From Escherichia coli (GTDB lineage Bacteria > Pseudomonadota > Gammaproteobacteria > Enterobacterales > Enterobacteriaceae), in assembly GCF_003334785.1 (NCBI RefSeq), contig NZ_QOWV01000019.1: 64,000 nucleotides of DNA. One strand, given 5' to 3'. Position numbers: made by a program. Below are positions 1-6,000 of the stretch, piece after piece. How positions within the stretch are numbered: position 1 is the first letter of the stretch; the number at the start of each line of letters is the position of its first letter.

Positions 1-3000
1 GACTTACGCGTGCGCAGGCCGACGCACAGGAGCTGAAAAATGCCAGAGACTCCGCTGAAGTGGTGGAAACCGCATTCTGTACTTTCGTGCTGTCGCGGAT
101 CGCAGGTGAAATTGCCAGTATTCTCGACGGGATCCCCCTGTCGGTGCAGCGGCGTTTTCCGGAACTGGAAAACCGACATGTTGATTTCCTGAAACGGGAT
201 ATCATCAAAGCCATGAACAAAGCAGCCGCGCTGGATGAACTGATAACGGGGCGCACTTTGACGGTGACCAGAGCGGCACGGTGAATGGTGTCACGCCGCC
301 AGCAGTTCAGCACCTGACCGCAGAAGTCACCGCAGACAGCGGGGAATACCAGGTGCTGGCGCGCTGGGACACGCCGAAGGTGGTGAAGGGGGTGAGCTTT
401 ATGCTTCGCCTGACCGTGGCAGCGGACGACGGCAGTGAGCGGTTGGTCAGCACGGCCCGGACGACGGAAACCACATATCGCTTCACGCAGCTGGCGCTGG
501 GAAATTACAGGCTGACAGTCCGGGCGGTAAATGCATGGGGACAGCCGGTGCACATACCCATTCGATGACATTTGTTTCAGGTGGTTCCAGTGGTGCTCCG
601 GGAAGTGGATCACCTGATTATTCTAAATACAGTGTTAACACTTCTTCTGCAGGCGCTCATACGCACTCTGTATCGGGTACTGCTGCAAGCGCAGGTGCAC
701 ACGCACATACTGTCGGTATTGGTGCTCATACGCACTCCGTTGCGATTGGTTCACATGGACATACCATCACCGTTAACGCTGCTGGTAACGCGGAAAACAC
801 CGTCAAAAACATCGCATTTAACTATATTGTGAGGCTTGCGTAATGGCATTCAGAATGAGTGAACAACCACGGACCATAAAAATTTATAATCTGCTGGCCG
901 GAACTAATGAATTTATTGGTGAAGGTGACGCATATATTCCGCCTCATACAGGTCTGCCAGCAAACAGTACCGATATTGCACCGCCAGATATTCCGGCAGG
1001 CTTCGTGGCTGTTTTCAACAGTGATGAGGCATCGTGGCATCTCGTTGAAGATCATCGGGGTAAAACGGTTTATGACGTGGCATCAGGGGACGCGTTATTT
1101 ATTTCTGAACTCGGTCCGTTACCGGAAAATGTTACCTGGTTATCGCCGGGAGGGGAATATCAGAAGTGGAACGGCACAGCCTGGGTGAAGGATACGGAAG
1201 CAGAAAAACTGTTCCGGATCCGGGAGGCGGAAGAAACAAAAAACAGCCTGATGCAGATAGCCAGTGAGCATATAGCGCCGCTTCAGGATGCTGTGGATCT
1301 GGAGATCGCAACGGAGGAAGAAACCTTGTTGCTGGAAGCCTGGAAAAAGTATCGGGTGTTGCTGAACCGTGTTGATACATCAACTGCACCGGATATTGAA
1401 TGGCCAGCACTGCCGTAGGGTAAAACATATAAATTCTATAATTAGATGTATCTCTCCATTTACGGCAAGGAAGGGGGCTTGGAAGACGTAAAGCATCTCA
1501 CACCGAGATTATTTTTTATATGTCAGGTGTCTGAAGTTTTGCTTTGGCTCTTAAAATGGTTTGCCGCGAGGTTTTGAATTCCCGGGCAATGGCACTTATA
1601 CTTACACCTGACTTAATTCGTTCGAATACCACCTGTTTCTGTTCTTCATTTAACACAGGTGGTCGACCAAAACGTTTCCCTGCGCCGCGGGCTCTTACTA
1701 TCCCGGAATGAGTGCGTTCAAGTAAAAGGTCTCGTTCAAATTCAGCGACTGCTGAAATTACGTGCATCATCATTTTTCCTGTTGGACTGGTCAGGTCAAT
1801 GCCCCCCAATGCTAAGCAATGCACTCTGATACCTGTTTCGGTCAGTTGTTCCACTGTTTTCCTGATATCCATTGCATTACAACCAAGGCGATCCAGTTTT
1901 GTCACAATCAATTGATCACCACATTTCAGGCGAGCAAGCAACCGGTTAAAACCAGGACGCTCACTGGTTGCTGCTGAGCCGCTAATGTGTTCTTCGATTA
2001 TTTGCTGAGGTTTGATTTTAAAACCTGCACTTTCGATTTCCCGGCGTTGATTTTCGGTGGTCTGATCCAGCGTTGATATCCGACAGTAAGCAAAAATTCG
2101 AGACATAGTGAGACTCTATACGAAATTGGTGTTCATATCATAATGCATCTCAGAAAATAATTTTGATTATTTTTGTGCATATTTGTATGTACACGTTCGA
2201 AAATAAACGAATGCGTATGCAACCCCGTAACTTTGGTGAGACCCAAAATCGATTTTGTGAAAAATGGCTTTAACTCGGTTTGTTTTTCGAGTTCCGGGCG
2301 GACTCAAGGAAGAAGAATAGTGTTGCGTGTTATTTTAACCAGATTTCAAGTTGTTTGGTCGTGGAAAAGTGGAGCAAAATGTTGTTAAAGTGGAAAAATG
2401 ATAAAAAAGTAAGTTTATTATATTACATTTTACCATTTAAATTTTGGTTGTCTTTAAGAACTGATATCGCTGTTTGTAATAATTCTTTGTTATCCAGCCA
2501 TGATTTTTTCTTTATGTTTCCTTCAATGTAATCAAGCAATGTTCTGGTATTGATAGGTCTTCCCTGTTTTGCTACTTCCACTACAGCATCCCCTAGGATA
2601 ATTCTGACTTCAGGAAGCTGCGCAGGGAACCACTTTAGGGTGTCTTTTGATTTCATGAATATATTCCTTAAAATATTATTGATTTTCATTGCGATATTGT
2701 ATGTCTGATTCAGGATATGTTGACTTATACATCGGTTTTGTCTGGGTTATTGGATATGCCAATCCCTAATTTTATTAGAGCATGACTAAAAATGCTGAAT
2801 ATGATAAGGAGCGAAGTGATTATCAGTATGCTGTTCATATAGCCTCGAATTAGTAATGTGTTATATATGATATAGTTGACAATTTTTATCCTGGGTGTTC
2901 TTAAAGTTCGTAGATAAACATTGTCGTTTCAGGTATACAGGAATGCTAACAGATGGCGGCAAAAATCAGGCGGTTTATGGCGCAAGCTGAAGTGGCAACT

Positions 3001-6000
3001 GCAAACTATCTTATGCAGAGACTCTACACGGATTGGGTTTAAAAGTATACATAGATAACAGTTTTTATCTGAAGAAGAAAAATATCAAGGTGATATAGCC
3101 TATATGCCTTTGATGTGGAGGAATGAATGTGATGGGAGTGATGTATCTGAATAGTTGAAAAACCGCAGACACGCCTTATGCAAGAACGTGCTGCGGTTGG
3201 CTGGTAAATTTTTCGATAGTGCGAGTATTGAATGATTTCCAGCCGTTATTGATTTTACGCGTAACTCCATGAAAAAACTACTTATCTGTTGAGGAGTTTT
3301 TTTGGGGCATATATGGGACAGAAATGGGCCCCAGATAGACACTGAGATCGAACTTAGGATGCTTTTTAAAAAATGCAACTATCTGAAAAAACCTAGAAAA
3401 CGCCAAGGAAACCACAGGATGGGAAAAAACACCTGTGAATTATGGATTTCCAGTTATATTCGCTCGGCGCAGCGTTAGTGTTTCATGAAATATTTTTTCC
3501 TGAATCATCAACGGCAATGGCGTTAATTCTGGCAATGGGAACCTACGGTGCAGGTTATGTGGCGCGTATTGTCGGAGCATTTATTTTCGGCAAAATGGGC
3601 GACAGAATAGGGCGTAAAAAAGTGCTCTTTATTACCATCACCATGATGGGGATCTGTACCACCTTAATTGGTGTGTTACCGACCTATGCACAGATTGGTG
3701 TTTTTGCACCCATCTTGCTGGTGACGTTGCGTATTATTCAGGGGTTGGGTGCAGGTGCGGAAATTTCCGGTGCCGGTACGATGCTGGCGGAATATGCGCC
3801 AAAAGGTAAGCGCGGAATTATCTCCTCATTTGTGGCTATGGGAACTAACTGCGGAACCTTGAGCGCAACGGCAATCTGGGCCTTTATGTTCTTCATTCTC
3901 AGTAAAGAGGAACTGCTGGCGTGGGGATGGCGTATACCGTTCCTGGCGAGTGTTGTCGTGATGGTCTTTGCTATCTGGTTGCGTATGAATCTGAAAGAAA
4001 GCCCGGTCTTTGAGAAGGTTAACGACAGTAACCAACCGACAGCAAAACCTGCACCTGCTGGTAGCATGTTCCAGAGCAAATCCTTCTGGCTGGCAACAGG
4101 GCTGCGTTTTGGTCAGGCGGGTAACTCCGGGTTAATTCAGACTTTCCTTGCAGGCTATTTAGTGCAGACGTTATTGTTTAACAAAGCAATTCCAACAGAT
4201 GCATTGATGATCAGTTCGATTCTCGGCTTTATGACCATTCCGTTCCTTGGTTGGTTATCCGATAAAATTGGTCGCCGGATCCCGTATATTATTATGAATA
4301 CCTCCGCGATTGTGCTGGCATGGCCAATGCTTTCTATCATTGTAGATAAAAGCTATGCCCCGAGCACCATTATGGTTGCACTGATTGTGATTCATAACTG
4401 TGCGGTGCTGGGATTATTTGCTCTGGAAAACATTACCATGGCAGAAATGTTCGGCTGTAAAAACCGCTTTACCCGGATGGCTATTTCTAAAGAAATTGGT
4501 GGTCTTATCGCTTCCGGTTTTGGTCCTATCCTGGCGGGTATTTTCTGCACCATGACGGAATCCTGGTATCCGATCGCCATTATGATCATGGCATATTCAG
4601 TGATTGGTTTAATCTCTGCGCTGAAAATGCCAGAGGTGAAAGACCGTGATTTAAGTGCGCTGGAAGACGCTGCGGAAGATCAACCGCGTGTTGTAAGAGC
4701 TGCGCAACCTTCCAGAAGTCTGTAAACCCTTAATCCCTTCTCTTACCGGAGAGGGGATTTTTATTCATATAACAAAACATATAGCTTGCCATATTTATAT
4801 TTAAGGAATTGTTATGGGAAATAATTTGTTATCAGCAAAAGCGACACTCCCTGTTTATGATCGTAATAACCTGGCTCCAAGAATTGTTCATTTAGGCTTT
4901 GGTGCATTTCACCGTGCGCATCAGGGTGTGTATGCCGATATTCTTGCTACGGAACATTTCAGTGACTGGGGATATTATGAGGTCAACTTAATCGGCGGCG
5001 AACAGCAAATTGCCGATTTACAACAGCAAGATAATCTTTATACCGTTGCGGAAATGTCGGCCGATGTGTGGACGGCTCGCGTCGTTGGCGTCGTTAAAAA
5101 AGCCTTGCACGTACAGATAGATGGCTTAGAAACCGTGTTGGCAGCGATGTGTGAACCGCAAATCGCGATTGTCTCTCTGACAATCACCGAAAAAGGGTAT
5201 TTCCACTCTCCGGCGACCGGACAGTTAATGCTCGATCACCCGATGGTAGCTGCCGACGTGCAAAATCCCCACCAGCCGAAAACAGCAACAGGGGTGATTG
5301 TTGAGGCGCTGGCTCGCCGTAAAGCGGCAGGACTTCCCGCATTTACCGTCATGTCATGTGACAACATGCCAGAAAACGGTCATGTTATGCGTGACGTTGT
5401 CACTTCCTACGCACAAGCCGTTGATGTAAAACTGGCACAATGGATCGAAGATAACGTGACTTTCCCATCAACAATGGTGGACCGTATTGTGCCCGCAGTG
5501 ACAGAGGATACGCTGGCGAAAATCGAACAACTTACCGGTGTGCGCGATCCTGCGGGCGTTGCCTGTGAACCTTTCCGCCAGTGGGTAATAGAAGATAACT
5601 TTGTTGCCGGACGTCCGGAATGGGAAAAAGCGGGAGCCGAACTGGTTAGCGATGTGCTGCCTTATGAAGAGATGAAGTTGCGCATGCTCAACGGCAGTCA
5701 TTCATTCCTGGCGTATCTGGGGTATCTTGCAGGATATCAGCACATTAATGACTGTATGGAAGATGAACATTATCGTTATGCGGCGTATGGCTTGATGTTG
5801 CAGGAACAAGCGCCGACGTTGAAAGTGCAGGGCGTTGATTTGCAAGATTACGCTAACCGATTAATTGCACGCTATAGCAACCCGGCGTTACGTCATCGAA
5901 CCTGGCAGATTGCGATGGATGGTAGCCAGAAATTGCCACAGCGGATGTTGGATTCTGTTCGCTGGCATCTGGCGCATGACAGCAAGTTCGATCTGCTGGC

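Follow-up and report, generated by a model that had tools for sequence, protein, structure and literature searches.

The first part of the analysed stretch of Escherichia coli DNA (the window, 64,000 nt of contig NZ_QOWV01000019.1, NCBI RefSeq assembly GCF_003334785.1) ends a phage-derived segment inside the transporter gene ydfJ. Positions 1-3450 were read as the right, tail-fibre-side arm of the cryptic lambdoid prophage Qin, inserted in ydfJ by site-specific recombination, and we put the probability of this reading at about 0.97. The four attachment (att) sites, an intact ydfJ allele, the ydfJ 5' fragment at the far prophage end and the attP of free phages were all observed. The splitting of ydfJ by a Qin end is real, fully explained and already published, including the loss of 28 codons (Ramisetty & Sudhakari 2019, PMC6379469).

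Open reading frames (ORFs) were listed and family profiles (PHROG, NCBIfam, and TIGR00883) searched in window 1-6500, and genome counts refer to a set of 5426 complete E. coli genomes. Region 1-6300 was found in full by megablast in 1424 of the 5426, with tfaQ, pinQ, ydfJ, and ydfI beneath the match. Strain VE-F10 shared 99.98% identity with the window across 26.3 kb, and K-12 was 99.3% identical over window 655-9727 and divergent at 252-654, so the window is not K-12. Since the far prophage end lies outside the window, attL and the ydfJ 5' fragment were read in these two near-identical genomes.

Attachment sites at both ends of Qin

The junction was resolved by a four-way alignment into the following features and arms.

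3440-3450, no strand: common core TTATGGATTTC of the attachment site, 11 bp, identical in attP, attB, attL, and attR (four-way alignment)
3436-3438, + strand: phage-derived TGA in the ydfJ frame, closing the frame from the phage side (translation ...KKHL*IMDFQLY)
3442-4725, + strand: 5'-truncated ydfJ of 427 codons, equivalent to codons 29-455 of an intact gene for an MHS-family MFS transporter (profile matches, PGAP, and the M217 allele)
attP: left ...AACAC, core region CTGTGAATTATGGATTTC, right AAGAGTCAT
attR (window): left ...AACAC, core region CTGTGAATTATGGATTTC, right CAGTTATAT
attL: left ...CTGCG, core region CTTGAATTTATGGATTTC, right AAGAGTCAT
attB: left ...CTGCG, core region CTTGAATTTATGGATTTC, right CAGTTATAT

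The attR site was composed of the attP left arm and the attB right arm, attL of the attB left arm and the attP right arm, and the attB junction sequence was GCGCTTGAATTTATGGATTTCCAGTTAT. To the left of the core an imperfect homology continued to 3436, with TGAATT in attP and attR compared to TGAATTT in attB and attL; owing to this one-base difference only 11 bp are strictly common, and the crossover is located within 3440-3450, or within 3436-3450 if one indel is allowed. Identity to phages ended at 3450 and identity to empty-site genomes began at 3436 (partial matches from base 201 of the junction query), while the K-12 RefSeq feature "cryptic prophage Qin" (NC_000913.3, 1632277..1652745) ended at the base matching window 3450. 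The core was present as a direct repeat at both prophage ends, and the flanks rejoined in silico into attB and attP. The first-pass annotation, which was made from the sequence alone, had described an abrupt ydfJ start with an in-frame stop 6 nt upstream and an integration or deletion junction near 3436-3445. The TGA does begin 6 nt before the ydfJ ATG at 3442, the junction was found close to where it had been expected, and the att sites identify it as an integration, not a deletion.

The prophage was positioned between rspB and ydfJ-ydfI, with the ydfJ-ydfI side in the window and the rspB side in VE-F10 and K-12. A search of the 64-kb window for the ydfJ 5' fragment returned just the 11-bp core and chance short matches, the far end being situated upstream of window position 1. 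Between rspB and the integrase, VE-F10 and K-12 read ATGACAATAGAA...GCGCTTGAATTTATGGATTTC followed by AAGAGTCATGCGTGTTAA, and the missing N-terminus, which had been predicted for the far end of the prophage, was recovered there, annotated in K-12 as ynfP. Upstream of the window start, the source genome would be expected to carry rspB, ATGACAATAGAAAAACACG...GAATTTATGGATTTC, AAGAGTCATGCG, and then int. Joining of the far-end arm at the core to window 3451 onward yielded a 455-aa ORF starting MTIEKHERSTKDLVKAAVSGWLGTALEF-MDFQLYSLG... The K-12 ynfP product (36 aa, MTIEKHERSTKDLVKAAVSGWLGTALEFMDFKSHAC) consists of 28 YdfJ residues, 3 core-encoded residues, and 5 phage-encoded residues; the gene spans 26729-26839 in the extracted K-12 locus and 255-365 in the extracted VE-F10 locus. 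Tagged YnfP was detected in K-12 by epitope tagging (VanOrsdel et al. 2018, PMC6001520), which means that the promoter and start codon of ydfJ remain active at the far end.

In VE-F10, in the region corresponding to DNA outside the window, attL was adjoined by a gene for a 426-aa tyrosine integrase (locus 385-1665; PHROG integrase, E 3.5e-75; XerC/D-type matches) with an excisionase beside it (locus 1700-1951; PHROG excisionase, E 1.4e-35). The intQ gene of K-12 is a pseudogene, in contrast to the intact integrase of VE-F10, a close relative of the window.

The synthetic attP, composed of window 3101-3450 and the int-side arm taken from VE-F10, was found in one piece in four phage genomes (HannyBb, Tritos, PhiR42_1, and mEp460_ev081; identity 98.6-99.1%), each time directly beside the integrase. 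The gene order in mEp460_ev081 was tail fibre, tfa, serine recombinase, ydfK homologue, attP, int, and xis. This functional temperate phage, which carries Qin-like dicB, dicF, dicAC, and rem genes (10.1101/2023.04.14.536235), was 98.2% identical to window 691-3450, and the identity stopped exactly at 3450.

The empty site was traced with a synthetic attB of 697 bp (the rspB-side arm plus window 3451-3800), counted when at least 80% was found in one place. It occurred in 2011 of the 5426 genomes (~37%), 100% identical and uninterrupted in many of them; in most of the 2011 the site was uninterrupted, and a few carried an IS1 insertion in it. Partial matches from empty-site genomes broke exactly at the core. 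In strain M217 the gene order was rspB, intact ydfJ (1368 nt, 455 aa, WP_000151243.1), and ydfI. The comparison with prophage-free genomes that the first-pass annotation had proposed recovered the intact 455-aa gene, and the four-way alignment recovered the attachment core; prophage-free alleles with a longer N-terminus do exist, and orthologues of 454-460 aa carry the N-terminal segment and do not start at the same Met.

The attR junction was present in 3167 of the 5426 genomes (~58%) and the attL junction in 2705. From these counts, about 460 genomes seemingly have the ydfJ-side junction without a matching int-side junction, and a divergent int arm or a deletion of the far end could be the cause. 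In the cattle strain 148 (NZ_CP028598.1; positions 1-4140 of the extracted locus), another lambdoid prophage occupied the attB in ydfJ, with three DUF1076 genes and a DinI-like gene beside attR, and it left the same 1284-nt ydfJ remnant as that in the window. Qin was reported in 48% of 638 strains (Ramisetty & Sudhakari 2019, PMC6379469). For W, K-12, B, and Crooks, ydfJ has been listed as the gene in which Qin is inserted (Archer et al. 2011, PMC3032704), and for strain SE11 a lambda-like prophage flanked by ydfJ and rspB has been listed (Oshima et al. 2008, PMC2608844).

Origin of the junction

In the mechanism favoured by a wide margin, a temperate mEp460-type phage recombined its attP with attB in ydfJ codons 27-31 through its own tyrosine integrase, the strand exchange taking place inside the shared 11-bp core. 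This Campbell-type insertion yielded attL (rspB, ydfJ codons 1-28, core, and int-side phage arm, at the far end outside the window) and attR (phage P arm, core, and ydfJ codon 32 onward, at window 3440-3450). In the window, the body of ydfJ is cut off from the ydfJ promoter and ribosome-binding site, and 28 codons, probably about half of the first transmembrane helix, are gone from its 5' end. In place of a new N-terminus, the phage arm provides an in-frame TGA, and the remaining ORF opens at the native internal Met29, which lies inside the core by chance. Later internal deletions, in an order of decay that we infer, removed morphogenesis genes, leaving nohA fused to a J fragment and this in turn to an stf remnant, and made the prophage cryptic.

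A deletion from a decaying prophage that took the true prophage end and the ydfJ 5' end together, leaving the N-terminal codons gone everywhere, would be in line with the internal deletions elsewhere in this prophage (the nohA, J fragment, and stf scar at ~251-570). Deletions into ydfJ do occur, as in O55:H7 DEC5A, where just the last 47 bases of the junction query matched, with a J gene beneath. However, the far end still holds the 28 codons next to the same core, phage identity runs uninterrupted to 3450, which is the attP core of the free phages, and the two host arms joined in silico reproduce a sequence found 100% identical in nature. A deletion endpoint is refuted by the four-way att alignment, and the probability left to it is close to nil. 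It is only slightly less improbable that the 427-aa YdfJ is a native complete transporter starting at the Met at 3442, with the prophage merely upstream. PGAP calls the 427-codon ydfJ incomplete, empty-site genomes encode a 455-aa YdfJ, and orthologues from at least five other genera measure 454-460 aa with the extra segment nearly invariant, its residues aligning to N-terminal positions of the ShiA, ProP, and TIGR00883 profiles. The + strand at 2675-3441 is also devoid of a sigma-70-like promoter. These results refute the native start as a statement on ancestry, even though K-12 RefSeq carries the 427-aa coding sequence as "putative transporter YdfJ", the truncated protein scores above the TIGR00883 cutoff (453.5 vs 443.45), and the ORF is free of decay.

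Arrival of the element by transposition, or by homologous recombination with an earlier prophage remnant instead of through an integrase, was judged very unlikely. The junctions are exact products of attP and attB with an 11-bp core and an adjoining tyrosine integrase and excisionase, and neither terminal inverted repeats nor a transposon-type target-site duplication were present. Lambdoid prophages do recombine widely, and different prophages occupy the ydfJ site, as strain 148 with its DUF1076 genes and DinI illustrates; with attL and attR in place, later arrivals could swap the interior by homologous recombination, but such a replacement would leave the origin of the junction unchanged. Nothing contradicts insertion by the phage integrase, with a few limits: attL and the 5' fragment are known from near-identical genomes and not from the source genome, the TGAATT to TGAATTT mismatch beside the core leaves 11 bp strictly common, the truncated ORF shows no decay in comparison to the intact allele, and K-12 RefSeq still lists the 427-aa product as a coding sequence.

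Truncated ydfJ and its displaced N-terminus

Over its 1284 nt, the ydfJ of the window matched the 3' part of the M217 allele, which is intact, with 100% identity. The window, K-12, VE-F10, and M217 did not differ from one another, and strain 148, which is also truncated, differed by 10 synonymous and 2 non-synonymous changes. Since the truncated ORF is base-identical to the intact allele, it shows no decay and does not speak for or against selection. In VE-F10, PGAP flags the gene as "incomplete; missing N-terminus".

Both forms of the protein scored above the curated TIGR00883 cutoff of 443.45 bits, the truncated one with 453.5 and the intact one with 462.9 bits. The match of intact YdfJ started at TIGR00883 position 1 (residue 23), ShiA position 12, and ProP position 22, that of the window copy at positions 7, 37, and 40, respectively, and the window copy does not have the complete N-terminus, with the whole first transmembrane helix, that characterizes the MHS family. 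Orthologues of 454-460 aa with 82-85% identity were found in Citrobacter, Enterobacter, Lelliottia, Leclercia, and Superficieibacter. The lost N-terminal segment AAVSGWLGTALEF was nearly invariant across genera, and so was the lost segment DLVKAAVSGWLGTALEF in the ortholog alignment with the five other genera.

Two low-confidence AlphaFold models, one from the single sequence (predicted local distance difference test score, pLDDT, 41) and one with 23 close orthologues (pLDDT 55, predicted template modelling score, pTM, 0.58), both had one continuous first helix (3-46 and 10-46) across the break at residues 28/29; the secondary-structure call alone was used from them (first helix at ~10-46), as weak evidence. 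Kyte-Doolittle hydropathy did not resolve the first helix as a distinct peak, the segment being amphipathic, with E27 and D30. A PDB sequence search with intact YdfJ returned nothing at E <= 1e-5 and so gave no solved homologue that would fix the limits of this helix. The claim of the first-pass annotation that the ORF starts inside transmembrane helix 1 is consistent with the models, with family profiles that require the lost residues and with the invariant segment, and hydropathy was not decisive for it. On this moderate evidence the break probably falls inside transmembrane helix 1 of YdfJ.

A consensus scan found no sigma-70-like promoter on the + strand at 2675-3441, which is weak negative evidence and agrees with the loss of the promoter of ydfJ. 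In the promoter and terminator scan of 2000-4900, the number of sites was no higher than in shuffled sequence. Downstream of ydfJ, the following features were located.

4732-4759, + strand: terminator-like hairpin 3' of ydfJ (consensus scan; the region has no excess of such sites over shuffled sequence)
4814-6274, + strand: ydfI, oxidoreductase of the mannitol dehydrogenase family, the host context marker downstream of ydfJ (NCBIfam fructuronate reductase subfamily, E 4e-194; RefSeq)

We infer that the YdfJ remnant is not a working transporter. A role of their own acquired by YnfP or the 427-aa remnant, for example, as a half-helix membrane peptide or as an 11-helix transporter made by phage read-through, is improbable and is the only question of any novelty here. 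If true, such a role could help to explain why the site is occupied in ~58% of complete E. coli genomes.

Gene content of the right arm and related elements

The right arm contained the following features.

1-284, + strand: 3' part of nohA, a homologue of the lambda Nu1-like terminase small subunit, truncated by the left edge of the window and ending in the deletion scar (PHROG terminase small subunit, E 2.6e-34; annotated nohA in K-12 and VE-F10)
281-568, + strand: internal fragment (95 aa) of a lambda J-type tail tip gene, between nohA and stf (NCBIfam lambda_TipJ, profile 612-699 of 1163, E 3.6e-46)
535-843, + strand: remnant of stfQ, the gene for the side tail fibre, covering ~100 aa at the C-terminus (PHROG tail fiber protein, profile 695-794 of 794, E 3e-40)
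843-1418, + strand: tfaQ, tail fibre assembly gene (PHROG tail fiber assembly, E 6.4e-100; RefSeq)
1516-2106, - strand: pinQ, serine DNA invertase (PHROG DNA invertase, E 2e-69; RefSeq)
2423-2656, - strand: ydfK, small phage-borne gene, "cold shock protein YdfK" in RefSeq, the ORF reaching 2689 (RefSeq; PHROG phrog_2718, E 2.8e-47)
2725-2838, - strand: ynfT, gene for a 37-aa small protein of the YnaM/YnfT family (translation; RefSeq)
2839-3439, no strand: AT-rich phage DNA without annotated gene, its right-hand part forming the P arm of the attachment site (G+C 0.37-0.40)

The tail fibre, tfa, and pin genes that the first-pass annotation had reported in the first 3.4 kb were all present. The stretch it had called AT-rich and ORF-poor is indeed AT-rich, with a G+C of 0.32-0.40 between ~2100 and 3450 compared to ~0.45-0.61 on both sides, but it is not free of genes, as ydfK and ynfT lie inside and just 2839-3439 is without an annotated gene. 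A ydfK homologue occupies the same relative position in mEp460_ev081. For the K-12 copy of ynfT, which is listed there as ynfQ and has an identical sequence, a tagged product was detected (PMC6001520). The gene-free DNA from 2839 ran collinear with that of phages mEp460_ev081 and HannyBb, at 98-99% identity, as far as base 3450. No RNA family was found by an Rfam scan within the AT-rich stretch, and a repeat search of 1-3600 revealed no convincing inverted repeats usable as Pin crossover sites and no transposon-like ends. An Rfam IS009 match at 1186-1384 (+ strand, 221 bits compared to a gathering score of 117) lay wholly within the tfaQ coding sequence; its likely cause is an Rfam family derived from a tfa segment of a prophage, rather than an RNA gene of its own. 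The Hfq-binding small RNA STnc560 had a full-length Rfam match far from the junction, at window 12779-12992 (+ strand, 281 bits, E 3e-64).

The cryptic state of the element is visible in the first 850 bp, where the remnant of the terminase small subunit, the 95-aa J fragment, and the 100-aa stf remnant are fused. PGAP annotates the J fragment as a pseudogene without both termini and the stf remnant at 637-843 as lacking the N-terminus, and no head or tail genes were found in VE-F10 in the 20 kb upstream of the match. The identity of nohA to K-12 stopped at window 251, a breakpoint common to the window and K-12. The scar at 252-654 measures 403 bp in the window, with the J fragment and a short stf C-terminus, compared to 781 bp of stf in K-12, which has the longer stf piece here. 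This suggests one common first deletion, with divergent later events or recombination afterwards.

Apart from this scar and the intQ pseudogene, the K-12 prophage Qin (Kim) resembles the window in its locus, attR junction, tfaQ, pinQ, ydfK, ynfT, truncated ydfJ, ydfI, and the loss of 28 codons. In phages mEp460_ev081, Tritos, HannyBb, and PhiR42_1, the part of the right arm between the tail fibre C-terminus and attP was 98-99% identical and collinear with the window, and attP was composed of the window P arm, the core, and the int-side arm found at attL. Their genomes are complete, with 45-49 kb, whereas the element in the window is missing everything between the terminase small subunit gene and the tail fibre C-terminus, apart from the J fragment. 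The identity to HannyBb started only at 1308, inside tfaQ, compared to 691 for mEp460_ev081, which marks 1308 as a mosaic breakpoint in this tail fibre assembly gene, beside the pin invertase. Stx-converting phages accounted for 91 of the 145 phage records matching the synthetic attP and, among the matches listed, covered a part of the query at ~91%.

Qin is similar to lambda, with its Int-mediated, Campbell-type recombination of attP with attB, in that the four att sites arise by reciprocal exchange within a short common core, the integrase and excisionase are located beside attL, and the tail-fibre side beside attR. In contrast to lambda, the Qin core of 11 bp lies within a protein-coding gene, the coding sequence is not restored, and the integrase is of another specificity type. 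Rac in ttcA and e14 in icd are, like Qin, lambdoid or defective prophages with attB inside a host ORF (PMC6379469), and Rac has a paralogous end with pinR, ynaE, and ynaM followed by the host gene (PMC6001520, PMC6379469). Since Rac alters the N-terminus of TtcA and e14 duplicates the 3' end of icd, both host genes stay expressed (PMC6379469). In contrast, Qin brings a stop codon but no new start, which leaves ydfJ truncated and without its own promoter.

The Qin/ydfJ junction is a standard part of the K-12 annotation, to which nothing scientifically new is added here; it offers a clean illustration of the four att sites and their 11-bp core. Across the 5426 genomes, ~37% have attB in one place, with no prophage and, in a few, an IS1 insertion, and ~58% have this attR. 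The cryptic Qin is tied to living mEp460-type phages bearing the matching attP. For annotation, the 427-aa "YdfJ" of K-12 is best read as a 5'-truncated remnant and YnfP as the orphaned N-terminus of YdfJ.

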